DNA of 30,233 nucleotides, from positions 1-30,233 of the forward strand of contig DATIIF010000040.1 of assembly GCA_035479935.1 (NCBI GenBank), given 5' to 3'. A program made the translations under genes and the position numbers. The notes under the pieces were generated by a model. That model did no database searches, was not told the origin of the DNA, and worked only from the letters and a program-made list of their open reading frames with translations. Below are positions 4,688 through 25,236 of the stretch, one piece after another (positions within the stretch are counted from its first letter, which is position 1; each line of letters begins with the position of its first letter). The DNA is from Patescibacteria group bacterium (GTDB lineage Bacteria; Patescibacteriota; Saccharimonadia; Saccharimonadales; JACOTW01).

Positions 4688-6001
4688 ATGGAACGAGTTT
4701 TGACGCGGGATGTGGCTAAGCATGCCGGTAAGGAAGTTACGCTTCGCGGATGGCTGCATAAAAAACGCCTAATTGGCGGGATTAATTTTATTTTGCTGCG
4801 CGACCGCGGCGGCTTGGCGCAAGTTGTACTGCAAGACGAAATCGAAGTCGAAAAGCTGCGTAATTTACACATCGGGACAGTGCTATTAATTACCGGTAAA
4901 GTGGTTGACGAGCCGCGTGCGCCGGGCGGCGCAGAAGTCCACGAGCCCAAAATCACAGTCGAGGTACCGGTAACCGAAGAACCGCTAATCGAAATCGACA
5001 AACCATTGAGCCATAAATCCGAAAATCTGGATACGCTTTTTGATAACCGCGTAATTGGCCTACGCAATTTGCAAGAGCAGGCCATCTTTAAGATCCAAGC
5101 CGAAGTCGAAGAAGCCATCAGCCGTTATCTAAAAAGCCAGGATTTTACGCAGTTCAACTCGCCAAAACTTTTGCCAGGCGCTACAGAGGGCGGAGCAGAG
5201 GTTTTTAAACTTGATTACTTTGGCAAAGAAGCGACACTAGCACAAAGCGCTCAGTTTTATAAGCAAATTATGGTAGGAGTTTACGAGCGTGTGTTTGAAA
5301 TTAATCCAACATACAGGGCAGAGCCGTCAGCCACCACGCGCCACATGACCGAGTATATAACTATTGATATGGAGATGGGCTTTATCACCTTCCCCGAATT
5401 ACTTAACACGTTAAGTAATTTGATCAATGCTGTAATAGATGGTGTTTGGCAAAAGTGTGAAGCAGAGCTCAAACTCTGGGATGCCAAAAAGCCAACTCTA
5501 ACTTCTGAATTCCCAGCTATGACTATGGCCGAGATTCACGAGAAGTATAGTAAAGAAACTGGCGAAGATACCACTAAGGAACTGGATCTAATTCCGAATG
5601 AGGAGCGCTGGATTTGCGAATACTCTGCTAAGAATCTAGACTCCGAGGCGATTTTTGTGACTGAATGGCCGGAGGCCGATGCCAAATTTTACCACAAATT
5701 ATATGAGGATAAACCTCAGCTGGCCGAACGGGCCGACCTGCTCTTCCGTGGTATTGAAATTGCTACTACTAGTATGCGGGAGCATCGCTATGATGTGTTA
5801 GTCAAGCAGCTGAAAGAAAAGATAGGTGCTAGCCCTGACGATGCGGGCTATAAATATTTCTTACAGGCTTTCAAATATGGTATGCCGCCGCATGGCGGTT
5901 TCGGCATGGGTTTGGAACGGCTGACCGAAAAAATCATCGGTCTTTCAAATGTCAAAGAAGCCACCCTCTTCCCCCGCGACATCAATAGATTGGCTCCGTA
6001 A
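4688..6001 (+). CDS. aspS: Aspartate--tRNA(Asp/Asn) ligase, archaeal-type non-discriminating AspRS
   Basis: 437 aa without the bacterial GAD insertion. OB-fold RGWLH...RAPGGAEV, motif 2 AQSAQFYKQ...YRAEPSATTRHMTE, motif 3 GMPPHGGFGMGLERL. Confidence 0.93.
   Translation: MERVLTRDVAKHAGKEVTLRGWLHKKRLIGGINFILLRDRGGLAQVVLQDEIEVEKLRNLHIGTVLLITGKVVDEPRAPGGAEVHEPKITVEVPVTEEPLIEIDKPLSHKSENLDTLFDNRVIGLRNLQEQAIFKIQAEVEEAISRYLKSQDFTQFNSPKLLPGATEGGAEVFKLDYFGKEATLAQSAQFYKQIMVGVYERVFEINPTYRAEPSATTRHMTEYITIDMEMGFITFPELLNTLSNLINAVIDGVWQKCEAELKLWDAKKPTLTSEFPAMTMAEIHEKYSKETGEDTTKELDLIPNEERWICEYSAKNLDSEAIFVTEWPEADAKFYHKLYEDKPQLAERADLLFRGIEIATTSMREHRYDVLVKQLKEKIGASPDDAGYKYFLQAFKYGMPPHGGFGMGLERLTEKIIGLSNVKEATLFPRDINRLAP
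5397..5420. repeat. Dispersed palindrome copy (inside aspS)
   Basis: AATTACTTAAC-AC-GTTAAGTAATT, perfect 11-2-11. Confidence 0.8.
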
Positions 6002-6011
6002 ACGTCTGAAT

Positions 6012-6779
6012 ATGAAAAATCGAGCTGTCATTTTTGATATTGACGGCACTGCTATCAATTCGCCTCAACAAAAAACACCATCGCAACGTTTGATTAATGC
6101 AATTAGAGAAATTGAAGATTCTTATTATGTTTGTGCGGCAACAGGACGGGTATGGCCCTTTGCCAAAGATATTCTTCAGGCCTTGAACCTGGTTGATCCA
6201 TGCATCATTTCTGGGGGCACTCAAATATGTAATCCAGCTGATGGAGAGATACTTTGGCAGTCCGATCTCGATCCAGCTGATTTTGAAACTGCTCTTAATA
6301 TCATGAAAGAGTATCCAGACTACTTAGTTATATATAACGAATACACCGAAGAAGATTATTTACATGGTGGAACATCGCCCAATGAAGTTAAGGTTAGTGG
6401 TCCAGTCTATATCTTGGAGCAAAAATTTATACCTAAATCAGTGGCACCAGAATTAGTTGCCAAATTATCAACTATTGAAGGCATTGCTTGCACGTTAGTA
6501 ACCGCCCAGAAACCTGGAGTAGTTGATATTCATGTCACTAATCGCGATGCTACTAAAGAACATACCATCGCGAAATTGCTGGAGATAATTAAAGTGGACA
6601 AAAAGAATACCATTGGCATCGGCGACGGCTATAATGATATCCATCTATTTAAAGCGGTGAATCATAAAGTGGCTATGGAGAATGCCGAAGCAGAACTAAA
6701 AGCAAGGGCCGATGAAGTAATCGGTCATGTATCAGACGATAGCTTTGCTCGTTATTTAGAAAGACTTGCAGGTAAATAA
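6012..6779 (+). CDS. HAD-IIB (Cof-type) phosphatase
   Basis: IFDIDGT (DxDGT), AATGR and GDGYND motifs. ATG 6012 is preferred over the track start at 5949, which overlaps aspS. Confidence 0.9.
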   Translation: MKNRAVIFDIDGTAINSPQQKTPSQRLINAIREIEDSYYVCAATGRVWPFAKDILQALNLVDPCIISGGTQICNPADGEILWQSDLDPADFETALNIMKEYPDYLVIYNEYTEEDYLHGGTSPNEVKVSGPVYILEQKFIPKSVAPELVAKLSTIEGIACTLVTAQKPGVVDIHVTNRDATKEHTIAKLLEIIKVDKKNTIGIGDGYNDIHLFKAVNHKVAMENAEAELKARADEVIGHVSDDSFARYLERLAGK

Positions 6780-6782
6780 TTA

Positions 6783-7709
6783 ATGAGTAATAAAATACTG
6801 GTTACCGATAGTCTTTTCATTTTTAACGAACACGTTAAACAGCTAGAAGCGGTGGGCTATGAAGTAGAACGACTGGATAAGCCGCGCGCCAGCGAAGAAG
6901 AATTATGCCGGGCAGTAAAGGGGAAAATAGGCTACATCTTGGGAGGCGTCGAACAAGTTACCGAAAAAGTAATAGATGCTGCCGACGACCTCAAGGCAAT
7001 TGTCTTCACTGGGATAGATTACAAAAATTTTATTCCAGGCTGGAAATTAGCTACAGAGAAGAGCATCGCCATAGCGAATGCCCCAGATGGTCCCACACAG
7101 GCTGTTGCTGAATGGGCAATCGGCGCCACACTCTTGATGAATCGAGGGTTTTTAGAACTTGGCCATACCGGGAACAAAAATTTTGCAACCACAAAAGGTA
7201 TCGAAAACCAAGCTATTGGGATCATTGGCTTCGGTCGAATCGGGAAACGGATTGCTGAAATGTTGAAGCCTTTTAATTCTAAATCCATAAGTTATTGGAG
7301 CCCTCATACACGGGACACGACCGGCTTAGCTAGCTACGCAGAGTTGGACCGACTCTTAAGTGGGTCTGATATTTTATACCTAGCTGTGCCAGCTGGCGCT
7401 GAAAACTTACTTGAGCAAAACATGATAGAAACAATAAAAGAAGGTTCTTTACTGGTAACTTTTACTCATGGCAAGGTTATAGATGAAAAAGCGCTGCTTA
7501 AAAGACTGGAAAATGGCAGTATGCGAGCTATCTCGGATAATCCAATTGAAAACGAAGCCTTTAAAAAACTGCCTTTAAATACTTGGTTTTGTTTTAATGG
7601 GTCTAATGCTTTCAACACAGAAACCGAAATTAAAATGACTAGTGATATGGTAATAAGATCTCTATTAAATCTTCTAAAAACTGGCAATGACACCTACAGA
7701 GTTAACTAG
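6783..7709 (+). CDS. D-isomer-specific 2-hydroxyacid dehydrogenase-like NAD(P)-binding protein (divergent active site)
   Basis: IANAPDGPTQAVAEWAIG, Rossmann GIIGFGRIG, LDRLLSGSDILYLAVP. The canonical Arg and His positions appear substituted. Confidence 0.85.
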   Translation: MSNKILVTDSLFIFNEHVKQLEAVGYEVERLDKPRASEEELCRAVKGKIGYILGGVEQVTEKVIDAADDLKAIVFTGIDYKNFIPGWKLATEKSIAIANAPDGPTQAVAEWAIGATLLMNRGFLELGHTGNKNFATTKGIENQAIGIIGFGRIGKRIAEMLKPFNSKSISYWSPHTRDTTGLASYAELDRLLSGSDILYLAVPAGAENLLEQNMIETIKEGSLLVTFTHGKVIDEKALLKRLENGSMRAISDNPIENEAFKKLPLNTWFCFNGSNAFNTETEIKMTSDMVIRSLLNLLKTGNDTYRVN

Positions 7710-7735
7710 CGGCATCAACCGCCTCACTCCATAAT

Positions 7736-8593
7736 ATGAGCTGGTTATTATTAACTTTTTTGTCTGTAATATCTCGCTCAATTTACGGCGTACTCACAAA
7801 GATTCTTTCAAATCAAGTAAAGACGTCTGTTTTCACTCAGGCGGCGCTTTTATCATTTGCGGGCGGTTTAATATCACTGCTAATCTCTCCGTTACTTGGA
7901 GGGCTAAGTGCTGATTTTTCAAAAGTCAGTCTCACAGTTGTTGCTTTTGTAATATTAGGGCAAGGTTTAGGAAATATAACTTATTTCCAGGCTATTAAGA
8001 AGCTTACCAATGGAACGGCACAAATCGCCTTTTCCTCGATTCTTGTTTTTAACACATTTCTTTCATTAATTTTCCTAAATCTTCACCTAACTCCAGTAAA
8101 TGTTTTTGGCGTCATTCTATTAATGCTCGCGATACTGAGCGTTACTAACGGTAAAGTTGAATTCAATAGAGAAGGAGTGCTTATGATGATATTCGCAGCC
8201 TTTTTATTTTCGGTTTTCCAACTTTCGAGTGCTAAGTTGTCAAAGCAAGTTGGAGCTACTACTTACCTGTTAATTGCTTATTTTGGCGCAGCTCTTGTCG
8301 TTTTTGCTTTGAAAACAAAAGTAATTGTTAAGGACTTAGCTCTACCTGATAGAAGATCAACTCTAGGATTGCCTTTGATAACAGCTGTACCAAGCTTAGG
8401 AAACTTTGCTTTTGCCTACTATGCTTATCGCGATGCGCCGCAACCAGCTAAAGTGGCAATGCTCTTGACCTCGCAGGTAGTGCTTACCGTATTTCTTAGC
8501 TATGTTTTCCTGAAAGAAAAAGGCCATTTTTGGCCAAAGGTCATCGCAGCGGCCTTAGTTGTTATTGCAGCAGTGCTAATCAAACGGGGATAA
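7736..8593 (+). CDS. EamA/DMT-family transporter
   Basis: 285 aa, about 10 TM helices in two repeats, C-terminal FLSYVFLKEK motif. Confidence 0.85.
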   Translation: MSWLLLTFLSVISRSIYGVLTKILSNQVKTSVFTQAALLSFAGGLISLLISPLLGGLSADFSKVSLTVVAFVILGQGLGNITYFQAIKKLTNGTAQIAFSSILVFNTFLSLIFLNLHLTPVNVFGVILLMLAILSVTNGKVEFNREGVLMMIFAAFLFSVFQLSSAKLSKQVGATTYLLIAYFGAALVVFALKTKVIVKDLALPDRRSTLGLPLITAVPSLGNFAFAYYAYRDAPQPAKVAMLLTSQVVLTVFLSYVFLKEKGHFWPKVIAAALVVIAAVLIKRG

Positions 8594-8613
8594 TACTTAA
8601 CTTGTTAAGTATT
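8592..8613. repeat. Dispersed palindrome copy at the convergent EamA/phosphatase junction
   Basis: AATACTTAAC-TT-GTTAAGTATT. It overlaps both stop codons. Confidence 0.85.
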
Positions 8614-9186
8614 TAGCTTAACTCCGTCAACCTCATGCAAAATATACGAGTCGTTCGCAACTGAGATATTAGCATAAGCACAATCGCCAATTTCAATTTC
8701 ACCTTCTTTTAGAATTTCTCGAAAAATATAGCGAATAGGTCCACCATGAGTTACGACTGCAGCGGTGGAATACTTACCAGTGTCTATCTTTTGCAGAGCT
8801 TCACGAATTCTTATGCCGAAACTATTATAATCTTCACCTTCAGCAACAGTAGAATGTTCATCAGCTAATAGTAATACTTGATCAGGAAACTTTTGTTTTG
8901 CCTCTTCTTTTGTAAGCCCAGTCAGTATCCCATAACGATTCCGTTCTCTAAAATTATCGATAGTTGTTAACGGTATGTTAATAGTGCGTCTTACAATTTC
9001 AGCTGTTTCCTTAGCTCTTATTTTTGGGCTGCAGTAAATGATTCCTATGTTCTTATCTGCTAATTTTCTAGCGACCCCTTCAGATTGCTGTTTGCCTAAA
9101 TCAGTTAGGTGGTCGTCATAATCCCCGCCGTATCTATTTTCAATATCACCAGTTGTTTGCCCGTGCCTTACCAAATAAATATTCAT
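8605..9186 (-). CDS. Histidine phosphatase (phosphoglycerate mutase family)
   Basis: YLVRHGQT, SPKIRAKET, FRER, VVTHGG motifs. Confidence 0.9.
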   Translation of the reverse strand: MNIYLVRHGQTTGDIENRYGGDYDDHLTDLGKQQSEGVARKLADKNIGIIYCSPKIRAKETAEIVRRTINIPLTTIDNFRERNRYGILTGLTKEEAKQKFPDQVLLLADEHSTVAEGEDYNSFGIRIREALQKIDTGKYSTAAVVTHGGPIRYIFREILKEGEIEIGDCAYANISVANDSYILHEVDGVKLNT

Positions 9187-9210
9187 TAATCTGGATTATA
9201 CGCTCAAAAA

Positions 9211-9678
9211 TTATTTACCTTGGTGGCGAGCGTGCCATTCGGTGTGGGCTTTGGGCATATCTTCGCCGCTGGCAAACAGAAAAATCACAGTCGTGCCTTT
9301 GCCCAAAAACGCAAACCGCTTGATTAGTGCAGCGACCTTTGTATCCTCGTCACCCAAAGACTTTAGATAATTTGCAAAAGAGCCGTGTTCTTTGGCAATC
9401 GATTGTATTTCTTTAGCGTTGGCTATGATGGCGCGGATTTTGGCCAAGTTATGAATGACGTCCCGGTCGTTCATCAGCTCTTCGATCTCCGGCTCTTGAA
9501 ATTTAGCCACTTTATCAATACTAAAATCCTTAAATGCCTTTTTGATGCCCGGCCATTTATTATCCAAAACTCTCCAATTCAGCCCGGCGACAAAGATCAC
9601 TCGGCTCATTCGCTCAAAATACTCGTCATCATTTTTGGGCTTGTCTATTTTGCCGTGCTTGGCATCCCAATTGGGCAT
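9211..9678 (-). CDS. tag: DNA-3-methyladenine glycosylase I-like protein (short Tag variant)
   Basis: YFERMSRVIFVAGLNW..KWPGIKKAFKDF, VIHNLAKIRAIIANA, GSFANYL. SD AGGAGG upstream. Confidence 0.75.
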   Translation of the reverse strand: MPNWDAKHGKIDKPKNDDEYFERMSRVIFVAGLNWRVLDNKWPGIKKAFKDFSIDKVAKFQEPEIEELMNDRDVIHNLAKIRAIIANAKEIQSIAKEHGSFANYLKSLGDEDTKVAALIKRFAFLGKGTTVIFLFASGEDMPKAHTEWHARHQGK

Positions 9679-9718
9679 AATCGCCTCCTAGATTATGTTC
9701 TCATTGTACAACTACAGG

Positions 9719-9757
9719 TTATTTTCTAGCCAAAACTTTCTTGAATAACCCTCTCAT
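9719..9757 (-). other. Possible 12-aa small ORF MRGLFKKVLARK
   Basis: ATG..TAA in frame, preceded by the purine-rich GGTGGAGAAAGGGGTTT. It lies between the operator and tag. Confidence 0.3.
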
Positions 9758-9783
9758 AAACCCCTTTCTCCACCAAGTTATAT

Positions 9784-9821
9784 AGTATGTATATTCAACC
9801 AATTGGTTGAATATACATACT
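9784..9821. promoter_or_regulatory. Putative ArsR-family operator (perfect 38-bp palindrome)
   Basis: AGTATGTATATTCAACCAATTGGTTGAATATACATACT. Its core matches the site upstream of arsR. Confidence 0.8.
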
Positions 9822-9889
9822 GGAGTCTACTGAAAGACGAAGCGAGGTAGGGGTGAGATTGAGGTAAGTGATGAGCTTGAAAAAGTGAG

Positions 9890-10222
9890 CTACATGCCAG
9901 GGGCGGGGAAGAGCTCGTGGATTTCTACCGAGAATTTGCCCGACTTGTCGCTTAGGAACGGATGCCCGTCAACCAGCTTCTTGGCTGATTCCATATCGTC
10001 AGCTTGCACGATCGAATAGCCGCTAAGCTGGCTGGCCTTGCCATCGGAGCCGTCATCAACCACAGCCACGCCATTAGCCATCGGCTGCCCAAAATCAACC
10101 ATCGCGTCACCGATTTTGTCCATCCATGCTCCCCATTTGGCCATTTCGGCCTTAGATTTTTCTGGCGCCATTTGTTCTGGTGGTGTTGCCGGGCCGTTGT
10201 AAAGTAATATAAATTTTTTCAT
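9890..10222 (-). CDS. YciI-family protein
   Basis: MKKFILLY...KWGAWM...GYSIVQADDMESAKKLVDGHPFL. SD AAGGAG. Confidence 0.8.
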   Translation of the reverse strand: MKKFILLYNGPATPPEQMAPEKSKAEMAKWGAWMDKIGDAMVDFGQPMANGVAVVDDGSDGKASQLSGYSIVQADDMESAKKLVDGHPFLSDKSGKFSVEIHELFPAPGM

Positions 10223-10234
10223 ATAATCTCCTTC

Positions 10235-10645
10235 TTAATTAAAGAATTTTTCTAACTTATTGAATGTGCCGACCCAACCATCGTCGTGCTGCGCCCGGGA
10301 TTCTTCGTCCACAAAGCCGGTGTGTTTTAGCGCGACTTCGGTTTTGTTTTCGTCAACTTTTTTAAAGTCGACGGACACGGTAGTCGATCCATGTCCCCAT
10401 GTAAAAACCAGCTTATTTGGCTCGCTGAACTCCAAATATTCGCCGTCCATATCAATGATCTGGTCGCCCATTTTCATCTGTACGTGGTATTTGCCACCTT
10501 TATGATTTTCCGAGCTGGCTTCTGGCGTGGTCATTCCCTCCGGGCTGTACCATTGCTTCATTTGCTTTGGCTCTGTCCATGCTCGAAAAACCTTGTCAAT
10601 CGGTGCATTAATCACTCTTTTTACTTCTACGGTCAGTTCAGCCAT
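10235..10645 (-). CDS. SRPBCC/AHSA1 (START-like) ligand-binding protein
   Basis: VKRVINAPIDKVFRAWTEP..MKQW, LVFTW, H..GW...FNKLEKFF. SD AGGAGG. It overlaps the arsR end. Confidence 0.9.
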   Translation of the reverse strand: MAELTVEVKRVINAPIDKVFRAWTEPKQMKQWYSPEGMTTPEASSENHKGGKYHVQMKMGDQIIDMDGEYLEFSEPNKLVFTWGHGSTTVSVDFKKVDENKTEVALKHTGFVDEESRAQHDDGWVGTFNKLEKFFN

Positions 10646-10997
10646 CCTGGCCTCCTTCTAGATAATTTTTTAATGAATCAAGGTTTGATTCCCAAAACTG
10701 AGTATAGTAATTAAGGTACCCTTCGGCATCTTTAAAGGCCACAGGATTTAAACTAACGTATTGCTTGCGCCCAATTTTGCGCTTAATTATAAAGCCGGCT
10801 TTTTCTAAGACTTTCAGATGCTTTGATACGGCAGCGAAGGTAAGGTTAGTGTAGGGCTCCCAAATCTGGGTAATTGTTAGCTGATATCGGCGGATGCGCC
10901 GCAGGATATCGCGGCGGGTAGGGTCAGACAAAGCGCTAAATATGGAATCCAGGCCCGGCTGCGTATCCGAAATTTCTGCTCCTGCCATCATTGCCAT
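10638..10997 (-). CDS. ArsR/SmtB-family transcriptional regulator (Cys-free, SRPBCC-associated type)
   Basis: FSALSDPTRRDIL, AAVSKHLKVLEKAGFI winged HTH, FWESNLDSLKNYLE. No Cys residues. Confidence 0.92.
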   Translation of the reverse strand: MAMMAGAEISDTQPGLDSIFSALSDPTRRDILRRIRRYQLTITQIWEPYTNLTFAAVSKHLKVLEKAGFIIKRKIGRKQYVSLNPVAFKDAEGYLNYYTQFWESNLDSLKNYLEGGQDG

Positions 10998-11014
10998 AAT
11001 CGTTTTCCCAATCT

Positions 11015-11063
11015 ATATTCAACCATTTAGTTGAATATTAATTCAAGAAACTATTCTTGTCAA
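11015..11063 (-). promoter_or_regulatory. arsR promoter with overlapping operator
   Basis: Minus strand TTGACA (11063-11058), 17 nt, TAATAT (11040-11035). The operator ATATTCAAC-CATTTA-GTTGAATAT (11015-11038) overlaps the -10 box. Confidence 0.8.
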
Positions 11064-11128
11064 TAATTTATTTGAGGTAAAGGTGTGATAAGTTAAGAAG
11101 TCGCTATAAGCGACAAGTCTTAGATAAA

Positions 11129-11638
11129 CTATTGGGCTTCGATGGCTAGAGCTTTTTGAACATCAAGCCAGAACGGATCAGTATCTTTTATAATTGCGCC
11201 ATGTTCCAAGTAAAAGCGTCGTGCAGCTTCTCGATTAGTGTTATGAGGATTCGAGGTAAATTGCATGACTGCTGCCTCATTCTCCTCACACCAGCCCAGC
11301 CCTTCATACCATACCTTACCAAATATACCTTGCCTTCTATAGTATGGATGAGTTGACACAAAGCCTAACCAAGCCATCTTACCAATTCCCTCAACTCCAA
11401 CATCGGGACTACATATCGTGTTTAAAGTTTCAGAACTGACAATCATGCCCGTTGTGGCCAATCGGGCTACAATCATTACCCTTTGATCGGGATGATCTAT
11501 ATGGTCGCGAATCATTCTTTCTGGCAGGGGCGTAGGCGGACGATCCGGACTTTCGGCATGAAGAAGTACCCCTAAAGCAGCAGCGTCATCCGGTGAATAC
11601 TCAGCCAGTCTTTCGATAACTACTTCAGAATTGCCCAT
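11129..11638 (-). CDS. GNAT-family N-acetyltransferase
   Basis: FVSTHPYYRRQGIFGKV (motif A R-x-x-G-x), FTSNP...REAARRFYLEHG. Confidence 0.8.
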   Translation of the reverse strand: MGNSEVVIERLAEYSPDDAAALGVLLHAESPDRPPTPLPERMIRDHIDHPDQRVMIVARLATTGMIVSSETLNTICSPDVGVEGIGKMAWLGFVSTHPYYRRQGIFGKVWYEGLGWCEENEAAVMQFTSNPHNTNREAARRFYLEHGAIIKDTDPFWLDVQKALAIEAQ

Positions 11639-11705
11639 CAGATAAAGATATTATTTTCTGAAACTGTTCGCAAGCATAAACGTGTCGAACTGCTACAATT
11701 TTCTT

Positions 11706-12341
11706 ATGAGAGTTTTGGTTTTTGGCGACAGCATTACTCAGGGTTTCTGGGACACCGAAGGCGGGTGGGTTGCTCGATTAAGGAAATATTATGATACACG
11801 GCAAATCGAAGACTTAAGAAATCGAGAAGAGCCCACAATCTTCAACCTAGGAATATCAGGAGGCACAAGCGAGACGATTTTAGCTCGGTTTGATAATGAG
11901 ACAAAAGCCAGAAAAAACAGAGAAGGGATGGTAATTATAGTTTCTACGGGATTGAATGATTCATACCGGGAAGGACCTGACCGTTACAAATCAACTCCAG
12001 AATCATACAGGCACAACCTTGTGCTACTGGCATCAAAGGCCAAAACCTACTCAAACAAAATTCTATTTGTAGGATTGGTGACTGGTGATGAAACCCAGAC
12101 AATGCCCGTCTTTTGGCGTGATATTTATTACGCCAACGAGCGTATAGAAGAGTTCGAGAATATTATGCAGAAAGTAGCATCTGAAAATGGGGTAAGCTTT
12201 GTACCAGTTTTTCAAGAATTTAAGAAGCATCTTGATGCCGGGGAAGACTTGTTGGCTGACGGTTTACATCCAAACAACGAAGGCCACGAGCTAATTTTTC
12301 AACTGGTTCGGCCAGAGCTGGATAAGCTACTAGCACTATGA
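11706..12341 (+). CDS. SGNH/GDSL hydrolase
   Basis: VFGDSIT, NLGISG, GLND, DGLHPN blocks. ATG 11706 sits 6 nt after TACAAT. Confidence 0.92.
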   Translation: MRVLVFGDSITQGFWDTEGGWVARLRKYYDTRQIEDLRNREEPTIFNLGISGGTSETILARFDNETKARKNREGMVIIVSTGLNDSYREGPDRYKSTPESYRHNLVLLASKAKTYSNKILFVGLVTGDETQTMPVFWRDIYYANERIEEFENIMQKVASENGVSFVPVFQEFKKHLDAGEDLLADGLHPNNEGHELIFQLVRPELDKLLAL

Positions 12342-12910
12342 AAGCCTATTTGATTCCCGGGAATGGCGAGGATTTAAAGTCGCGTAATTATCAGGCCGTC
12401 TTGGATATATATAAAAAACTCGGATACCAGCCGATCTTTGTGCCTATAAAGTGGAACTATCGGACAATTGATGATTGGATTGCGGAAGTAGATAACAAAA
12501 TCCCTGCAAAAGAAATACAGAATTCACTATTGAGTGGTTTTTCGTTCGGCTCGATGATAGCTCTGGCCGTGGCCGCTCAAGTTAATCCTAAAAAGCTTTT
12601 GCTTTTTTCTTTATCACCTTACTTTAAAGAAGATTTTCCTCTGCCGAAAGATTACGCTAAGTGGGCCGGCAAGAGAAAAACAGAAAATTTTAAGACCTTT
12701 TCAATGAACGATTTAGCTGTAAAGATAAACTGCCCGACAATAATATTCATCGGCAGAAAAGAAATAGATAAGTACAGTGATATGGATGAGCGTTCCAGCG
12801 AAGCACACAAACGGATTAAAAACAGCAGGTTAGTTGTAGTAGAAGATGTCGGTCATGACGTCAGCGACCCAAAATACGTGGAGAGTATAAAACACTCTCT
12901 AAATACTTAA
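12338..12910 (+). CDS. Alpha/beta hydrolase
   Basis: Nucleophile elbow GFSFG, late His (VGHD). ATGA overlap with the SGNH gene. Confidence 0.8.
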   Translation: MKAYLIPGNGEDLKSRNYQAVLDIYKKLGYQPIFVPIKWNYRTIDDWIAEVDNKIPAKEIQNSLLSGFSFGSMIALAVAAQVNPKKLLLFSLSPYFKEDFPLPKDYAKWAGKRKTENFKTFSMNDLAVKINCPTIIFIGRKEIDKYSDMDERSSEAHKRIKNSRLVVVEDVGHDVSDPKYVESIKHSLNT

Positions 12911-12924
12911 CAAGTCAAGCATTT
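12901..12924. repeat. Dispersed palindrome copy (imperfect) over the hydrolase stop codon
   Basis: AAATACTTAAC-AA-GTCAAGCATTT, with two T>C changes in the right arm. Confidence 0.75.
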
Positions 12925-12956
12925 TTTGTACTATGGTTTGAGAGTACAATTGGCTT

Positions 12957-13736: not shown

Positions 13737-13737
13737 T

Positions 13738-13759
13738 AATACTTAACTAATCAAGTATT
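13738..13759. repeat. Dispersed palindrome copy (imperfect) just after a stop codon
   Basis: AATACTTAAC-TA-ATCAAGTATT. Confidence 0.7.
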
Positions 13760-13807
13760 TCCTCCGGAAGATAGCCCGAGTGTCGGATTCATTCCGCGCC
13801 CGGAGCG

Positions 13808-13834
13808 ATAAGGAACCCCTTCGCGGTTCCTTAT
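13808..13834. terminator. Hairpin between convergent genes (possible bidirectional terminator)
   Basis: ATAAGGAACC-CCTTCGC-GGTTCCTTAT, 10-bp stem. Confidence 0.6.
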
Positions 13835-13853
13835 AAGGCGCAGCGCAGCCGCT

Positions 13854-15095
13854 TTAGCGGGTGTAGGTTTTGGCGGCGGAGTCAAAGCTGGAGATACTGG
13901 AGCATTGCTTGCCAACAAAAACTTCGAACTTGAGCTCACGGGCGGCTGTCATCTGCACAATGCCGCAGCCAAATACATTCGATTTTGGCTTGAGTTTTAC
14001 CTCTTTGGCAACGGCCATCTGATCCCAGCTACTGCCGCCATTCTTGATATAATCCCAGCCTACTAGATCATACTTAACTAGCCCTCTAGACACGTCTACG
14101 TCTTTGGGATCCGGAGAATTAGTAAGTGTTACATGCTGCATGTCACTTTGGTTCTGAACTTGATTGTAAAGTGAGCCAATAGAAACTCTAAAATAGCTTG
14201 GATCGTACAGATCCGGCGCGAACGAAAGATGAGTTTTGAAATAGTTAGGGTCATGGCTAGTGCTATTACCACCGTACCCACCGGTGCTTTTCTCGAACCA
14301 GTTGCCAATAAGTTTTCCATCTATATCGTAATCTATCTTCCCTGCGATAGGTTCGGCTGTACGCGAATCTTTGCTTTCTACAATTTGGCGCAGAGCTGGC
14401 GTGTAATACGGGAACGGGTCGGCGGTATATATTTTCCAGGCCTCGCCATCATAAGAGACTGGGTTTACGAACCCACTCAGAGGTTTTTTAGTGTTCCAAA
14501 CTGCAAAGTCGAGCGTTTGGCCGCCAATGTGGCCGATCAGCTGGCCGGCTTTGACGCTGATCGGTAAATGATCCTTGTCTATTCCCGGCTGTACGCTCGT
14601 TACCAAATCGTAATAGTAAAAGAAGGTACACGATACGCTGAAGACAAGCCGGATTCGGCCCAGGCTACCATTTTCGGGCGGATGCACTTCAACATCAGTA
14701 ATCTTGGCGTCGGCCATTGCATAAACCGGATACGTGTCTTTGGCGGATTGAAAAACTGTTGGCTGAAAATACTGGTGGTCAATCGGCGTCACGTGCCCAC
14801 CGACTGTCAGGCCATAGGGGATTAGCAAAGAAAAATCGTCAGCATTCATTGGCAGGTGCGTAAAGGTAGTTTCGCCACTGCCGCTGCAGTTGTTATTACT
14901 GAGCATTCTGCCGGCTTTAATGGCCTTATCATCGGCCGAAGCATTGCTGGTTAGGATTTTGGACGTGGAATTATTGGATTTATCTTTGGCTTTACTAAAA
15001 ACCCGCCAACCAGCAAAACCGATAGCGACTATAACGATTACCGCCAAAAATAAAAATAAGTGACCAAAACCACTGTCTGAATTTTTCCTAAGCAT
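13854..15095 (-). CDS. Prepilin-like N-terminus plus degenerate M23-like domain and C-terminal extension
   Basis: SDSGFGHLFLFLAVIVIVAIGFAGWRV, then YPVYAMADAKI, VKAGQLIGHIGGQTLDFAV. ATG 15095 is preferred (TACACT 6 nt upstream). Confidence 0.65.
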   Translation of the reverse strand: MLRKNSDSGFGHLFLFLAVIVIVAIGFAGWRVFSKAKDKSNNSTSKILTSNASADDKAIKAGRMLSNNNCSGSGETTFTHLPMNADDFSLLIPYGLTVGGHVTPIDHQYFQPTVFQSAKDTYPVYAMADAKITDVEVHPPENGSLGRIRLVFSVSCTFFYYYDLVTSVQPGIDKDHLPISVKAGQLIGHIGGQTLDFAVWNTKKPLSGFVNPVSYDGEAWKIYTADPFPYYTPALRQIVESKDSRTAEPIAGKIDYDIDGKLIGNWFEKSTGGYGGNSTSHDPNYFKTHLSFAPDLYDPSYFRVSIGSLYNQVQNQSDMQHVTLTNSPDPKDVDVSRGLVKYDLVGWDYIKNGGSSWDQMAVAKEVKLKPKSNVFGCGIVQMTAARELKFEVFVGKQCSSISSFDSAAKTYTR

Positions 15096-15138
15096 AAGCG
15101 GAGTGTAACCTAAAGTATTGTCCAAATCCAGCGTATAA

Positions 15139-15220: not shown

Positions 15221-15233
15221 TATAATCTAGGGT

Positions 15234-18319: not shown

Positions 18320-18345
18320 AAATTACTTAACAAGTTAAGTAATTT
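18320..18345. repeat. Dispersed palindrome copy abutting the AlkA stop codon
   Basis: AAATTACTTAAC-AA-GTTAAGTAATTT, perfect 12-2-12. Confidence 0.85.
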
Positions 18346-19560: not shown

Positions 19561-20196
19561 ATGAAAATTACCAAATTTGTCCATTCGTGCTTACTGGTAG
19601 AGACTTCAGAAATTAATGTGCTTTTTGATCCCGGTAATTTTACTTGGGATAGTCATCTGTTGAATATTAATGAACTGCCCAGTCTTAACTCTATTGTTAT
19701 TACTCACGAACACCCTGATCACTATCATGAACAGGGTCTTAAGAAACTGAGCCATCGTTTTCCCAGAGCCACTATTATTACCAACAATGATTTAGCCGAA
19801 AAAATTTCAAAGCTCAAATTGCCAAATCCCATTCAGGGGGGCAGTGATGAGAACGTAGTAGTTTTTGAAGCAGTACATGAGCCGTTGCCCCTTAACGTGC
19901 CGAACGTTTTAAATATCGGTGTTCATATTCAGGATAAACTTACCCATCCCGGCGACTCATTTGCCTTTAAGCACACGTGCGAAGTCTTGGCTCTACCGCT
20001 GACTGGGCCATGGGCCAGCTTAAGGGATGCGCTAAAAACTGTAGTTGAACTAAAGCCCAAGACCGTGATACCAGTTCACGACTGGGAATGGCATAAAGCC
20101 GCCCGCGAGGCTCGCTACTCCATGTGCAAGAACTTGCTGGAGCCGCACAGTATAGAATTTATCGGACTCGAAAACGCCCAGCCAATCGAGATTTAG
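19561..20196 (+). CDS. MBL-fold metallo-hydrolase
   Basis: HSCLLVE, DPG, THEHPDH, HPGDS, IPVH motifs. Confidence 0.9.
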   Translation: MKITKFVHSCLLVETSEINVLFDPGNFTWDSHLLNINELPSLNSIVITHEHPDHYHEQGLKKLSHRFPRATIITNNDLAEKISKLKLPNPIQGGSDENVVVFEAVHEPLPLNVPNVLNIGVHIQDKLTHPGDSFAFKHTCEVLALPLTGPWASLRDALKTVVELKPKTVIPVHDWEWHKAAREARYSMCKNLLEPHSIEFIGLENAQPIEI

Positions 20197-21500
20197 TCAT
20201 TAAATTCCTGGCGCAACCACTCATCTAGACTTTTGCCACCGCCGCCGCTCAGACCTATAACTAAATCGCCATTTTTCAAATGTTTTTTTACGATGGTCTT
20301 TAGCTTTTCATTAAGCTCTGCCGGGCGAGCAACTGCTTCCGCTGGCGTATCAAGAAACTTTATTAAATCAGCTGGACTAAGAACTGGCTGGTTGGGATCT
20401 TCACGAGCCAAATAACTGGGCACCCAATAAAGTGCGTCGACACCGTCAAAAACGTCCTGGTGTTGTTCTTTCATGTAGTGCATTCGGCGATTGGTAAGCG
20501 GTTCATAAATAATAATTATTTTTTGCCCGGTTTTTTGGGCGGTTTCCAAAGCAACACTCATAACACCTCGGATCTTATCCGGGGTGTGGGCGTAATCGGT
20601 GTATAGATTTTCGGTTAGTTTCTCAAAGCGGCGACTAACGCCGGGGAAGTCGTTCATGAGTTTAATCAGCTCGTTAGGGGGCTTTTGGGTCAGGTGTGCA
20701 GCAGCTCTGATTGCCAGCCACCCATCGAAGCGGTTATAGCGGCCAATTAGCTTAATGTCATCAATAAAAGTTGTATTTTCTGACTCTATAAAAAGACCAG
20801 GCGTCGATTTACTTAACAAGTCAAGCTTTTCAGCGTCGTTGTGCCAAAGTACTACTTCCTGGCTTTGAGCAACAAAAAGTCTAAAGGCGTCAAAGTAATC
20901 TTTTTCGGTTGGAAAAATTTCATGATGATCCCAAGCCACACCACTGACAATCGACAAACGAGGCTTAAAGGCTAAAAAGTTTCGGTCGAATTCGTCGGCC
21001 TCATAAACAAAGTATTCACTCTTAGGGTCAAATTGACCCATGTCACCAAAACTGATTTTGGCACCGACGCTGTAGCTGGTAGGAATCTTTAACTGCTTAA
21101 ATAACCAGACAACCATTGCTGTAGTGGTGGTTTTGCCATGTGTGCCGGCAACAGCGATTAGCTTAAGTTCTTTTTGCGACAGAATCTCATTTAACAGTTC
21201 ATCACGCTTGGTCATTTTAATGTTATTTTCTTTGCAAAAGGTAAATTCTGGATTATCTGGGAAATCTAACGGCTGCGCCGAACCGTACACAAACCAATCG
21301 ATTGGTTTGCGAGCATGCACGGCAGCTATTTGTTCACGCGTGAGGCCTACATGCGTATCTTCAATACCCTGTTTTCTCAGGTACGCCAGATATTGGCTAT
21401 CCCTCCCATCAGATCCACTGACTTCATACCCCGCTTCTTTAGCAATTACCGCCAAGGCGCTAATAGCTGCCCCACCTACGCCCGAAAAATAGACATGCAT
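20193..21500 (-). CDS. murC: UDP-N-acetylmuramate--L-alanine ligase-like Mur ligase
   Basis: FSGVGGAAISALA, VSGSD, IAVAGTHGKTTTT, YEADEFDR, DHHE, PGVSRRFE, DYAHTP. ATG 21500 is preferred over the track start. Confidence 0.8.
   Translation of the reverse strand: MHVYFSGVGGAAISALAVIAKEAGYEVSGSDGRDSQYLAYLRKQGIEDTHVGLTREQIAAVHARKPIDWFVYGSAQPLDFPDNPEFTFCKENNIKMTKRDELLNEILSQKELKLIAVAGTHGKTTTTAMVVWLFKQLKIPTSYSVGAKISFGDMGQFDPKSEYFVYEADEFDRNFLAFKPRLSIVSGVAWDHHEIFPTEKDYFDAFRLFVAQSQEVVLWHNDAEKLDLLSKSTPGLFIESENTTFIDDIKLIGRYNRFDGWLAIRAAAHLTQKPPNELIKLMNDFPGVSRRFEKLTENLYTDYAHTPDKIRGVMSVALETAQKTGQKIIIIYEPLTNRRMHYMKEQHQDVFDGVDALYWVPSYLAREDPNQPVLSPADLIKFLDTPAEAVARPAELNEKLKTIVKKHLKNGDLVIGLSGGGGKSLDEWLRQEFND
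20810..20826. repeat. Dispersed palindrome copy (imperfect, inside murC)
   Basis: TACTTAAC-AA-GTCAAGC, identical over 17 bp to the copy at 12904-12920. Confidence 0.55.
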
Positions 21501-21603
21501 AAATATAGGGTATAGGACACAGGACACGGGGTCTAGTAAGTTTAATGACAATGGAGTTTTGACGGGTAGGGGCTGGCGTGACAAGATAGAAAGAGCTAAT
21601 GCT

Positions 21604-22218
21604 ATGAAAAGATCATCATTCATATTGTCATTTATTAAATATGTACCCAGGTACGTTTTTTTAATTTTGTTTATTACGAGTGCTTTAATATCAATCCATG
21701 CGCTGCGCCAGAATAATTTGCATATGGTTAAACTGCGTGATGCAGTTTACCAAGCCGATAAAAACAACGGCGATGTAAACACTGCACTAAACAGTCTGCG
21801 AGCTTACGTTTATGCTCACATGAATACCAATTTATCAAGCGGTACTAACGGGATTAAACCGCCTATCCAGCTTCCCTATACTTATGCCAGATTGGCATCG
21901 ACAGCTCAGCAACAATCCAGCAACGCTGGCCTTTACACCGAAGCTGAAAATTATTGCCAAGCAAAAATTCCGGCCAGTGAGTCGATATCCGGACGCGGGC
22001 GTATATCTTGCGTGCAGGATTATATATTAAGCCATGGCGGTAAAGTAGCACCAGAGGTGCCAAAAGTTCTATACGAATTCGATTTTATCAGCCCCTCTTG
22101 GAGCCCGGATCTAGCCGGCTGGAGCCTGATCTTTACAGCTATTTTCTTCTTGGCTTTTATAGTCAAACTGGCATTCGATAAGATATTGGGCGCTCAACTA
22201 AGGCACCAACAACTTTAA
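21604..22218 (+). CDS. Hypothetical two-TM membrane protein
   Basis: TM at both ends around a periplasm-like domain with a Cys pair (ENYC...ISCV) and WSPDLAGW. ATG 21604 avoids a long overlap with murC. Confidence 0.7.
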   Translation: MKRSSFILSFIKYVPRYVFLILFITSALISIHALRQNNLHMVKLRDAVYQADKNNGDVNTALNSLRAYVYAHMNTNLSSGTNGIKPPIQLPYTYARLASTAQQQSSNAGLYTEAENYCQAKIPASESISGRGRISCVQDYILSHGGKVAPEVPKVLYEFDFISPSWSPDLAGWSLIFTAIFFLAFIVKLAFDKILGAQLRHQQL

Positions 22219-22270: not shown

Positions 22271-22900
22271 TTATCTTGCAGTGTTGTTTTGAGTCGAGCT
22301 AGGTGTAGCTTGGGTATTGGTGTTTGACTGTGTTTGGTTTGTTGTTGCACTACAGTTAGGACCATTTGGATTCTGTTTGATGTATTGCTGGATAGCCTGT
22401 ACGACTTTACCGTTGTCTTTCAGGTTCTCCCAGAAGGCTACTTGATTGCGATTGATCACCATTTCGTCATATGGCGAGTGCAATTGTTGACAGCCTAGTT
22501 TGGTAAGTTGCGGGTTAGATTGACCATTTTGTGATGACTGATCAGTAGTTAAGTAGTAGATGTTGTCTAACACAACGTATTTGTCGGTCATCTTAACGAT
22601 ATGACCGAAGTAGGTAGAGTAGAGCACCGAACCGCTAGTAACTCCGCCATTTAGGAAAAGTGCCTGGTATTTACTTTGACTAACTCTATCGAACTCAGAG
22701 CTTGCGTTGTTGTTACTGAATCCCAGGTAAAGTGATACGGCGGCAAGAAGCAAGGCAGTGCCTACAAGCAGCGTAAATAGCTCCAACCTGACTGTTCTAG
22801 TTGCCCAATCAATGTGTTTTCTTCGACCTGAGTGTGCTGGCCCCATTGTGTTTAGGGGTTGGGAGGCGTTACTGGCCCCACCACGAGACAAAAATGCCAT
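22271..22900 (-). CDS. Hypothetical membrane-anchored protein (family I associate with CPR genomes)
   Basis: Single TM, YQALFLNGG...YFGHI...LDNIYYL, LTKLG..LHSPYDEM.INR.QV.FWENLK. Confidence 0.75.
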   Translation of the reverse strand: MAFLSRGGASNASQPLNTMGPAHSGRRKHIDWATRTVRLELFTLLVGTALLLAAVSLYLGFSNNNASSEFDRVSQSKYQALFLNGGVTSGSVLYSTYFGHIVKMTDKYVVLDNIYYLTTDQSSQNGQSNPQLTKLGCQQLHSPYDEMVINRNQVAFWENLKDNGKVVQAIQQYIKQNPNGPNCSATTNQTQSNTNTQATPSSTQNNTAR

Positions 22901-23345: not shown

Positions 23346-24104
23346 ATGTCCAAATCGATTGTTAAAGTTGATGATCTGCATAAATCCTACAACGGCAAAG
23401 AAGTTGTTAAGGGAATCAGTTTTGAGGTAAAGGCTGGCGAGACATTTGGCATTTTAGGCCCAAATGGCGCTGGTAAAACCACTACGCTCGAGATGATAGA
23501 AACGCTGCGCCCGATAGATAAAGGCATCGTTACCATCGACGGCGTCAATGTATCGGAAAATCCGCAAAAAATTAAATATATGATCGGTGTGCAAACCCAG
23601 TCAACGGCTTTCATGGACAAAGTCAAACTTACCGAACTTTTAGAGCAGCAAGCTGCCGCCTACGGCGAGCACATCGACCCACTCAAATTATTAAGAGATG
23701 TTAACTTAGAAAGCCAGGCCGGCAACTATATTGAAAACCTATCCGGCGGGCAAAAGCAGCGCTTCAGCATTGCAGCAGCTCTGGTCCATAGCCCCAAGGT
23801 ATTTTTCTTAGACGAGCCGACTACCGGGCTCGATCCGCAAGCCCGCCGCCGTTTATGGGAGCTAATCCAAACGGTAAAAGCTAAAGGCGTCACAGTCATA
23901 TTGACTACTCATTACATGGAAGAAGCGGAGATGCTGTGCGAACGAGTGGCGATCATGGATGAGGGCACGATTGTTGCTATGGACTCACCAAAGAATCTGA
24001 TCAGACAGCTACTTGCAAAGGGCTTCAAAAAGGAGCGGCGTGTCGAGCAGGCCGACTTGGAGGACGTATTCATTGATCTAACGGGCAAGGAGTTAAGAGG
24101 TTAA
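23346..24104 (+). CDS. ABC transporter ATP-binding protein (ABC-2/DrrA-like)
   Basis: GPNGAGKTT, LSGGQ, FLDEPTTGLDP, TTHYMEEAE. Confidence 0.95.
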   Translation: MSKSIVKVDDLHKSYNGKEVVKGISFEVKAGETFGILGPNGAGKTTTLEMIETLRPIDKGIVTIDGVNVSENPQKIKYMIGVQTQSTAFMDKVKLTELLEQQAAAYGEHIDPLKLLRDVNLESQAGNYIENLSGGQKQRFSIAAALVHSPKVFFLDEPTTGLDPQARRRLWELIQTVKAKGVTVILTTHYMEEAEMLCERVAIMDEGTIVAMDSPKNLIRQLLAKGFKKERRVEQADLEDVFIDLTGKELRG

Positions 24105-24106
24105 TT

Positions 24107-25210
24107 ATGCCAAAGTGGCTTTATACGGTAGCGGTATTCGCCAAAATCAGCATCAGGCGCTATTTCCGGGACAAAGTGGCGATTTTCTTCACTGTGCTTT
24201 TCCCACTGATTTTCCTTGTCGTGTTTGGTAGTTTCAGCAAAGATAATAATGTGTCATTCCATATCGCCCTGATCAACCAGAGCCATAGCCAGTTCGCCCA
24301 GAAATTTGCCTCCGACACTAAAAACAGTAAGACGTTCAAGGTGAACGATAGCACCACACTGGATCAAGCCAAGCAAAAGATGAGCCGCAGTGAAATTGAT
24401 GCCGCAATAGTACTGCCCTCAGGTTTTGGAGAGGTCAAAAACAACTCCTATCCTTCCGGCCAAGCAGTGATTTATTATGACGAGAACAGTGCTCAAGCTG
24501 CCCAAACACTAAAAACCGTACTCCAGGGGCAATTCGAGGGCATAAACTCCAGCCTGGTGAAAATTCAGACGCCGTTCAGCGTCGCCAGCAAATCAACTAA
24601 CGCCCAGGGGCTATCCAAGCTGGACTATACGGTGTCAGGTTTGATTGGTTTCGCGATTATCGGGTTGGGAGTTTTTGGCCCCGTAAATTACTTCCCACTG
24701 ATGAAAAGGCAAGGAGTGTTGCGGCGGCTACACATAACACCTCTGCGCGTCTGGCAATTCTTCGTTTCTAGCGTGTTGAGTAATGCGGTTATTGGACTTT
24801 TCTCTATTGCCATAATGATTGCTGTGGCGTCTTCGCCTTTGTTCCACTTTAAAATAATCGGCAACTATTTTGAGCTGGCAGTATTTATAGTTCTTGGCAT
24901 ACTGACCATCTTTGGTATTGGGTTGGCTATCGGCGGCTGGGCCAAGAACGAGAACCAGGCGGCACCGCTGGCTAACATCGTGGTTTTCCCGATGTTGTTT
25001 TTGTCAGGTACTTTCTTCCCGCGCTATGCGATGCCTGAGTGGCTGCAGCATGTCACTGCTTTTCTGCCGCTAACACCAATTATTGATGGTATCAGGATGA
25101 TTGCCACAGAAGGGAAGCACCTGACAGATATTGGTCCACAACTCGGCCTGATAGCTATTTGGGCTGTGATTATTTATGCCATAGCGTTTCGTGTCTTTCG
25201 CTGGGAGTAG
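24107..25210 (+). CDS. ABC-2 type transporter permease
   Basis: N-terminal TM, large extracellular loop, 5 C-terminal TMs, FLSGTFFP...MP.WLQ...LPLT. Confidence 0.92.
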   Translation: MPKWLYTVAVFAKISIRRYFRDKVAIFFTVLFPLIFLVVFGSFSKDNNVSFHIALINQSHSQFAQKFASDTKNSKTFKVNDSTTLDQAKQKMSRSEIDAAIVLPSGFGEVKNNSYPSGQAVIYYDENSAQAAQTLKTVLQGQFEGINSSLVKIQTPFSVASKSTNAQGLSKLDYTVSGLIGFAIIGLGVFGPVNYFPLMKRQGVLRRLHITPLRVWQFFVSSVLSNAVIGLFSIAIMIAVASSPLFHFKIIGNYFELAVFIVLGILTIFGIGLAIGGWAKNENQAAPLANIVVFPMLFLSGTFFPRYAMPEWLQHVTAFLPLTPIIDGIRMIATEGKHLTDIGPQLGLIAIWAVIIYAIAFRVFRWE

Positions 25211-25236
25211 AAAATACTTAACGTGTTAAGTATTTT
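25211..25236. repeat. Dispersed palindrome copy directly after the permease stop codon
   Basis: AAAATACTTAAC-GT-GTTAAGTATTTT, perfect 12-2-12. Confidence 0.85.

Follow-up and report, generated by a model that had tools for sequence, protein, structure and literature searches.

A palindromic DNA site of the origin-proximal chromosome in Saccharimonadales and its putative role as a diverged parS

The palindrome family in the window

The 30,233-bp contig DATIIF010000040.1 (assembly GCA_035479935.1), hereafter the window, is the whole stretch of patescibacterial DNA that was analysed, and it carries, within and between its genes, a family of short palindromes which form the subject of this report. 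The palindromes consist of two half-sites placed around a 2-nt spacer in the form TACTTAAC-NN-GTTAAGTA. Homologues of the ParB protein of the source bin place the lineage in Candidatus Saccharibacteria (Saccharimonadales). The bin itself (G000) is a metagenome-assembled genome (MAG) of 597 kb in 74 contigs, with 44.8% G+C, 77% completeness and 4.5% contamination, in which the window is contig C40; this contig was not seen as a compositional outlier in a tetranucleotide principal component analysis of the bin.

Matching of the palindrome pattern TACTTAACNNGTTAAGTA at no more than two mismatches recovered six copies in the window (at 5400, 8594, 12904, 13740, 18324 and 25215), against 0 in the control of 100 dinucleotide-preserving shuffles. 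A seventh copy, at 20810, has three mismatches. These results bear out a preliminary description of the window which had reported seven palindromes with a 2-nt spacer, four of them perfect and five overlapping or abutting stop codons (Table 1), the arms of the perfect copies being 10-12 bp long when their A/T flanks are included. The same description had called the spacer variable, and it is indeed AC, TT, AA, TA, AA, AA and GT in the seven copies. The consensus can be written approximately as AWTACTTRAC-NN-GTYAAGTAWT, with a free 2-bp spacer between two 8-bp half-sites. Exact copies of the 8-mer TACTTAAC number 15 on both strands, as had been counted before, whereas the shuffles gave 1.1 on average and never more than 4. 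This total includes four lone half-sites, which against about one expected are weakly above chance and of uncertain status.

Table 1. Palindrome copies, lone half-sites and the gene enclosing the first copy, in window coordinates.
Feature	Coordinates	Strand	Form or evidence	Context
Class II Asp/Asn-type aminoacyl-tRNA synthetase gene	4688-6001	+	Pfam tRNA-synt_2, 4e-74	
Palindrome	5397..5420		Perfect, 11-bp arms, AATTACTTAAC-AC-GTTAAGTAATT	In frame within the synthetase gene of the row above
Palindrome	8592..8613		Perfect, 10-bp arms	Fills the convergent gap between an EamA transporter gene (end 8593, +) and a histidine-phosphatase gene (end 8605, -)
Palindrome	12901..12924		Imperfect, 2 mismatches, right half GTCAAGCA	35 bp upstream of an M23 peptidase gene
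Palindrome	13738..13759		Imperfect, 2 mismatches	3 nt past the M23 peptidase stop codon (gene 12957-13736, +)
Palindrome	18320..18345		Perfect, 12-bp arms	Between a MazG-like gene (end 18199, +) and an HhH-GPD glycosylase gene (end 18344, -)
Palindrome	20810..20827		Degenerate, 3 mismatches, TACTTAACAAGTCAAGCT	Inside a Mur ligase gene (20193-21623, -)
Palindrome	25211..25236		Perfect, 12-bp arms	Between an ABC-2 permease gene (end 25210, +) and a MurJ flippase gene (start 25361, +)
Lone half-site	14071..14078	+	Exact TACTTAAC, exact 8-mer search	
Lone half-site	22548-22555	-	Exact, exact 8-mer search	
Lone half-site	29032-29039	-	Exact, exact 8-mer search	
Lone half-site	29595-29602	-	Exact, exact 8-mer search	

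Several copies overlap coding sequence in informative ways. The copy in the synthetase gene encodes the peptide L-L-N-T-L-S-N, the right arm of the copy at 8592..8613 contains the stop codon of the minus-strand histidine-phosphatase gene, and the TAA in the left arm of the copy at 12901..12924 is the stop codon of an open reading frame (ORF) at 12338-12910. The last of these copies has the variant half-site GTCAAG, which was found again in three other genomes of the comparison (G004, G078 and G120) and can hence be regarded as a tolerated variant. The copy at 13738..13759 lies in a convergent gap with the ORF at 13854-15125 on the minus strand. A stretch of 24-25 nt identical (100%) to the copy at 18320..18345 was found in the relative G001 (contig C3), inside recX.

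Gene context and RNA folding

By context, two of the window copies are intragenic and in frame (5400 and 20810), three are found in convergent intergenic gaps and two in tandem ones. The motif holds a TAA in two of the three frames on each strand, and its sole gene-internal reading is (L/I)-L-N-x-L-S; since only one passable frame is left, copies in a compact genome otherwise come to lie at or beside stop codons, which accounts for the association with stop codons noted earlier. The concentration at gene 3' ends that had been described proved to be a property of the window only, as in the complete relative G004 12 of the 16 sites are intragenic, four are between tandem genes and none is between convergent genes.

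The position of the window copies raises the possibility that the palindrome acts as an RNA hairpin, either as a bidirectional terminator or in the protection or processing of 3' ends. Five of the seven window copies are found where genes end, including the three in convergent gaps, the A/T flanks lengthen the stem and provide short T runs, and with folding energies of -7 to -10 kcal/mol the perfect copies are more stable than their shuffles. However, an intrinsic terminator has a stable, GC-rich stem-loop with a U tract behind it where the transcription unit ends, and the stems here are AT-rich with no more than two G-C pairs, folding energies across the copies range from -0.8 to -10.3 kcal/mol, and a simple search for terminator patterns picked up no palindrome copy. 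Imperfect copies fold no better than shuffles (-0.8 kcal/mol for 12901..12924 and -3.4 kcal/mol for 20810..20827), and the strongest hairpin of all (-10.3 kcal/mol) belongs to the copy at 5397..5420, which is not a terminator since it lies inside the tRNA synthetase gene. The predominance of intragenic sites in G004 points in the same direction. Moreover, the stem sequence is conserved across families without compensatory changes, which a structure-only element does not require, and the clustering near the origin described below is not expected of terminators. A role as an RNA hairpin is consequently judged very unlikely, and the earlier view of the palindrome as a poor intrinsic terminator is supported.

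Distribution in the bin, the order and the phylum

The palindrome family is regional and not dispersed over the genome, because in the source bin both its half-sites and its complete copies are concentrated in the window. Exact half-sites number 28 in the bin, 15 of which are in the window, and the remaining 13 are at or below chance; the idea of a genome-wide dispersal or enrichment of the 8-mer was not sustained. Four of the five perfect palindromes are likewise in the window, and the 14 sites found at no more than three mismatches are distributed over C40 (7), C8 (3), C20 (2), C39 and C55.

As a palindrome, the motif stands out from all others. In both genomes checked (G004 and the source bin), CTTAAC-N2-GTTAAG is the top over-represented palindrome of the 6+6 type with spacers of 0-4 nt. 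It has nine copies in G004, where any other palindrome has at most three, and nine in the bin, where a first-order Markov model predicts 0.07 and other palindromes have at most four, in each case with the exception of its own shifted register at spacer 4.

Conservation in relatives, proposed earlier as a check, was found within the order, with matches at control level elsewhere in the phylum. The exact 18-mer is present in 13 of 40 relatives belonging to different families (control, 0). Of 151 Saccharimonadales genomes, 75 have 1-10 copies each of the exact core CTTAAC-NN-GTTAAG, whereas the reversed control gave about 10 matches overall. The distribution of the core respects family boundaries: all sampled members of f2, f4, f8, f12, f28, f36 and f51 are positive, and it was found in no sampled member of f7, f14, f23, f29, f33, f38, f45 and f46. 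Outside the order, about 190 genomes of the phylum yielded five single matches against 18 for the control. The motif is confined to one order, the Saccharimonadales.

Such a distribution bears on the earlier suggestion of a DNA uptake signal, which would serve natural transformation and, as in Neisseria, come in pairs where genes end. Competence genes do occur in Saccharibacteria (DprA was found in 131 of the 151 order genomes), some sites are in or beside genes of repair and recombination (recX, and near glycosylase genes), and DprA is missing from the motif-negative genome G050. Known uptake signals, on the other hand, occur about once per kb, in hundreds to thousands of copies per genome and with a single non-palindromic unit being over-represented, and the 9-26 sites found per genome are about two orders of magnitude too few; lone half-sites are at background outside the palindromes and the sites are clustered in one chromosomal region. 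Nor is there a link to DprA, which is present in all motif-negative families checked yet absent from the motif-rich genomes G139, G084 and G150. An uptake function is therefore regarded as extremely improbable.

The comparison of contigs also brought to light a property of the bin itself, which holds two versions of one chromosomal region. Contigs C55 and C8 are syntenic with the window at 2873-25211 at 65-74% nucleotide identity, and for several genes C55 and C8 are nearer to G001, a member of the same family, while C40 is nearer to G004, which belongs to another family. In keeping with the 4.5% contamination estimate, two related Saccharimonadales populations are probably combined in the MAG.

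Chromosomal position

The position of the sites on the chromosome was determined in G004, which is a single contig of 669,327 bp and was analysed whole. Cumulative GC skew places its origin at about 628 kb and its terminus at about 256 kb, with dnaA at 646,862. The genome has 16 sites at no more than two mismatches and 26 at no more than three, against three in the control. The 16 sites are on average 96 kb from the skew origin, compared with 167 kb under random placement (p = 0.002), and a circular test of the Rayleigh type, which makes no use of the origin, gave p = 0.004, the mean direction being at about 580 kb.

The window corresponds collinearly, though inverted, to 581-607 kb of G004, a segment 21-47 kb from the origin of this genome. 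A tblastn search for dnaA in the source bin found none, so the window is placed relative to the origin only through its synteny with G004. The other site-bearing contigs of the bin that could be mapped fall at least partly at 527-607 kb of G004, with the exception of C46; this contig has a single exact copy of the core and corresponds to about 275 kb of G004. In five genomes (G004, G011, G036, G078 and G104), sites that share a contig with dnaA are mostly 20-200 kb upstream of it, with a few sites elsewhere in G004. Compared with G004 or G001, the individual positions of the window sites have turned over, but their density in the region is maintained.

The region is also variable in gene content, as a segment of about 10 kb at 6001-16070 of the window, located between the tRNA synthetase gene and a gene for a CarboxypepD_reg-domain protein, is missing from the version of the region in C55 and G001 and only partly present in G004. 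The products of these accessory genes include HAD, 2-hydroxyacid dehydrogenase, EamA, histidine phosphatase, methyladenine glycosylase, YCII, AHSA1, ArsR, GNAT, GDSL and M23 proteins, together with unknown proteins. Elsewhere in G004, a heliorhodopsin gene was noted at C1:416632-417426 on the minus strand (Pfam 8e-91), with a weaker match in the source bin and none in G050.

Selection on the DNA in recX

The clearest indication that the palindrome is maintained as DNA comes from recX, which was compared in 30 genes across the order. Twenty of these genes carry one or two in-frame copies of the palindrome, and in G001 two perfect copies are found inside the gene (10330-10923 of its locus). In these 20 genomes, which belong to many families, the peptide (I/L)-L-N-x-L-S is found at the same codon positions of recX, and in all 20 it is written with the codons CTT AAC ANG TTA AG(T/C), in most cases after an ATA codon for Ile. 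In the paralogous helix, which lies one repeat upstream, a similar peptide is frequent, but its codons are unrestricted (CTG, CTA, TTG or CTT for Leu; AAC or AAT for Asn), and the other ten genomes, which are site-free, have a different peptide at that position. Since the codons of the site are fixed while those of the paralogous helix vary freely, it is the palindrome itself that is conserved, dictating the peptide. This pattern points to selection on the DNA, with the site presumably being recognised on the nucleic acid, and it argues against either a coding artefact or a mobile insertion as the source of the motif. The site in recX may be the oldest of the family.

The same comparison weighs on the proposal that the palindrome is a recombination site, in the form of a minimal attC-like element or the footprint of a small mobile repeat at cassette borders, similar to repetitive extragenic palindromes (REP) or miniature inverted-repeat transposable elements (MITE). 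As had been pointed out, the arms fit RYYYAAC and GTTRRRY; the window region differs in gene content from G004 and G001, the M23 peptidase gene has a copy on either side, and one copy borders a segment that G004 lacks. Set against this, no integrase, tyrosine recombinase or transposase was found among the window ORFs, and at 18-24 bp the palindrome is far below the length of attC sites, which are imperfect palindromes of 57-141 bp with R''-L''/L'-R' cores, located in arrays beside an intI integrase gene, where they delimit cassettes without promoters. Most sites of G004 are in frame inside conserved genes, the recX copy, found in many families at one and the same codon, speaks for selected vertical inheritance and against insertion, and the sequence is identical across families of the order at low copy number. 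Recombination thus appears a highly improbable explanation.

An operator for a transcription factor, for instance a lineage-specific LexA box over repair genes, would also take the form of a dimer-type palindrome, and the sites in recX and near glycosylase and MazG genes could be seen in this light. However, three window sites are between convergent genes, most G004 sites are intragenic, and site positions turn over between syntenic genomes without loss of regional density. For LexA in particular, boxes would be expected in the promoters of SOS genes, lexA among them, but many sites are in non-promoter positions, the lexA gene of the source bin (on C15) has no copy upstream, and C15 has no match even at three mismatches. 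An operator function is considered exceedingly unlikely.

The earlier suggestion of a protein-recognised DNA site is supported. The palindrome is very probably a DNA site under selection, with a protein that recognises it and a link to the origin-proximal domain, and of the hypotheses first put forward the evidence favours a dimeric factor that organises the nucleoid or chromosome. The palindrome would be recognised by a protein dimer, and it marks the chromosomal region near the origin in some of the Saccharimonadales.

An altered ParB and the lack of canonical parS above control level

A candidate for such a factor is ParB, which is usually encoded along with ParA and whose chromosomal binding site parS was searched for in its canonical form. 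The canonical core GTTNCACGTGNAAC gave seven matches in the 151 order genomes against nine in the control and is thus not above control. The full site TGTTNCACGTGAAACA was found neither within one mismatch in the source bin, where a single match with two mismatches lies on C30, nor within two mismatches in G004. In the phylum as a whole, 53 of 201 genomes have the canonical core, all of them outside the order, so that the palindrome and canonical parS exclude each other, and usually in tight arrays of 2-12 copies, while families of the phylum without a ParB match also lack it; the search therefore detects canonical parS where it is present. Dense arrays of 5-7 copies within about 0.6-2.3 kb were seen in G188 (C2:129053-129942), G322 (C10:20667-21258) and G337 (C2:534599-536864), and G259 has 12 canonical copies.

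ParB itself is present in 141 of the 151 order genomes, with one protein of the family found per genome. In the source bin it is encoded by a parA-parB operon on C13 (PF02195, 5e-34), its CTP-binding GERRWRA box is intact, and its best structural relatives are Thermus Spo0J (1vz0, 1e-45), Noc and Caulobacter ParB (6t1f). Its recognition surface is changed. In Caulobacter numbering the protein shows Q162Y, S172A, R173T, A177N, T179I and A184Q, with N178, G201 and R204 being kept. All 90 of the order ParBs that were read are without Arg173, and nearly all are without Gln162, whereas the 28 ParBs from genomes of the phylum with canonical parS all keep both residues. Seven further ParBs of the phylum lack Arg173, and all of these come from genomes without canonical parS (Fisher p = 0.003, for lineages that are not independent). 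According to Jalal et al. 2020 (PMC7383237), guanine 1 of parS forms a hydrogen bond with Arg173, a residue that does not vary among the variants able to bind parS, and Gln162 and Ser172 contact DNA and are conserved in both ParB and Noc.

The half-site TACTTAAC is identical to the canonical half-site TGTTTCAC at five of eight positions, the differences being G to A at position 1, T to C at position 2 and C to A at position 5. It therefore has an A where Arg173 reads guanine 1, and the two halves are 2 bp further apart. Known parS sets comprise 2-22 sites, both genic and intergenic, mostly in the origin domain (PMC7022226), and the palindrome agrees with them in copy number, in its mixture of genic and intergenic sites and in its location.

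Since canonical parS is not above control and the recognition surface of ParB is altered, the palindrome is best read as the replacement parS of this lineage. The preliminary description had found no match to parS, which holds for the canonical sequence but probably not for the role, as a function of the parS type is the best reading in view of the altered ParB and the missing canonical site. That ParB is the binder, and the palindrome a diverged parS with the half-site TACTTAAC and two extra bases at the dyad, is regarded as reasonably probable. In the mechanism that would follow, the chromosomal ParB CTPase clamp would be loaded at the palindrome, and ParB would spread from there and segregate origins together with ParA (and with SMC in model bacteria); the ParB of the order appears to have lost Arg173 and Gln162, two of the contacts made to parS in the Caulobacter structure. 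Both the binding of ParB to the palindrome and the nucleation of a partition complex there are putative steps that we infer from genome comparison. For the full proposal, in which the Saccharimonadales would have rewired ParB-parS such that a ParB without Arg173 and Gln162 loads at the 18-bp TACTTAAC-NN-GTTAAGTA with its wider half-site spacing, at sites spread over an origin-flanking domain of 100-200 kb and in recX, the chances are put slightly above even.

A number of observations weigh against ParB as the binding protein. About half of the order is without the exact core despite nearly identical ParB recognition helices (for example f38, G128 and G035), and no ParB residue was found that separates motif-positive from motif-negative genomes of the order. 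G078 and G120 have degenerate sites, and G128, G035 and G007 are at control level. In G050, which is motif-negative and consists of a single contig, a de novo search returned no over-represented replacement palindrome. This genome has a lone variant, ACTAAAC-GG-GTTTAGT, at C1:27334-27349, about 160 bp upstream of dnaA, which may be a one-site version of the same system; three of its eight weak matches are within 25 kb of dnaA. Four fragmented motif-bearing MAGs (G082, G048, G112 and G005; 85-95% complete) gave no ParB_N match, which is likely due to assembly gaps. The layout also differs from that in sister lineages, where canonical parS forms tight arrays, as the sites cover about 100-200 kb and keep to one flank of the origin. 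In G004 the distance between parAB and the origin is about 200 kb, and in the source bin the parAB contig showed no site. Finally, the insertion of 2 bp at the dyad alters the relative geometry of the two ParB DNA-binding domains.

In counting palindromes it was also noted that raw counts in G050 are dominated by long tandem-repeat coding regions at C1 134700-138100 and 345100-347800.

The likeness of the ParB recognition helices in motif-positive and motif-negative genomes and the loose spacing of the sites would be accommodated if a different dimeric DNA-binding protein, analogous to those of RacA/ram, Noc/NBS or MatP/matS, organised or marked the origin-proximal domain while ParB bound another site. 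Origin-proximal palindromes bound by proteins other than ParB exist elsewhere, as in RacA/ram of B. subtilis, and four small ORFs without a Pfam match are common to G004 and the source bin and absent from motif-negative G050. However, among the 31 genes shared by G004 and the bin and missing from G050, the 20 smallest were scanned and none has an evident sequence-specific DNA-binding domain; the annotated genes of this set encode DprA, a nuclease, methyltransferases, transporters and similar products, with no candidate helix-turn-helix protein. In addition, a single protein of the ParB family was found per genome, and neither canonical parS above control nor another over-represented palindrome was found to serve it. 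The resemblance of the half-site to parS, with a change falling on the very base read by the lost Arg173, also speaks against another protein. This alternative is considered possible but rather unlikely.

Comparison with known systems

The putative ParB-parS pair of the Saccharimonadales resembles the canonical ParABS systems (B. subtilis Spo0J, Caulobacter ParB and Thermus Spo0J) in having a single chromosomal ParB with a GERRxRA CTP motif encoded in a parAB operon, and in its palindrome of two 8-bp half-sites present in few to about 25 copies, genic as well as intergenic, with a concentration near the origin and five of the eight half-site bases in common. It differs in the length of the site, canonical parS being 16 bp long and the palindrome 18 bp with a free 2-bp spacer at the dyad, and in the ParB, which is without the Arg173 and Gln162 conserved in canonical parS-binding proteins and whose binding is here predicted from sequence. 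Canonical parS sites also form a tight cluster, unlike the sites described here, which extend over 100-200 kb on one side of dnaA.

The Noc protein of Firmicutes and its Noc-binding site (NBS, TATTTCCCGGGAAATA) provide a precedent for a ParB-family specificity that was changed by substitutions at residue 173 and nearby. Both systems have an A at position 1 of the site, and in both proteins a Glu precedes the G/R-H-A-R motif. However, Noc is an extra paralogue beside ParB, whereas one ParB-family gene is found here, and NBS keeps the 16-bp spacing and is distributed over the chromosome except for the terminus, which the palindrome does not and is not. The specificity residues also differ, with Q173, K179, K184 and R201 of Noc corresponding to T, I, Q and G in the ParB of the source bin.

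RacA/ram of Bacillus subtilis and MatP/matS of enterobacteria are similar in that short palindromes in one macrodomain are bound by a dimeric organising protein, but neither the RacA nor the MatP protein family was detected here. Furthermore, matS marks the terminus and not the origin, and ram sites are GC-rich and used only in sporulation. Paired DNA uptake sequences (DUS) of Neisseria and intrinsic terminators share with the palindrome the presence of conserved-sequence inverted repeats at some gene ends. Compared with DUS, the copy number is about 100-fold lower and the unit is the palindrome and not the half-site; in contrast to both DUS and terminators, the sites lie near the origin, many are intragenic and their hairpins are weak.

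Significance

A full-text literature search for parS together with Saccharibacteria or Patescibacteria returned nothing, and in a search on non-canonical chromosomal parS the case of the Saccharimonadales did not surface. Both the motif and the loss of Arg173 in the order appear undescribed within the literature searched. The palindrome is likely a new centromere site in Saccharibacteria, where the Saccharimonadales, an order with tiny genomes, would have lost the near-universal parS.

Chromosomal parS is among the most conserved DNA sites of bacteria, and a natural, order-wide switch of both partners as well as of the spacing would, if true, be a rare case of evolution of centromere specificity in the ParB of a main chromosome, a process that has so far been studied mainly in the Noc paralogue and in engineered ParB variants. 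It would also test what change in spacing is tolerated by a CTP-gated clamp, and it would offer an orthogonal ParB-parS pair that could be used for the labelling of DNA loci. ParBs without Arg173 in genomes without canonical parS were also observed in other families of the Patescibacteria (G153 and G181 of f75, G168 of f90, G177 and G201 of f99, and G306 of f72). The centromeres of these four families may be further variants of parS, and under the proposed rewiring such variants would await discovery there.

If ParB is not the binder, the palindrome would still be a conserved site of the origin domain for another protein partner. If it is, the site would serve as a marker in uncultivated genomes and give access to the origin domain and the segregation of chromosomes in the Saccharibacteria, epibionts with reduced genomes, most of which are known only from MAGs.

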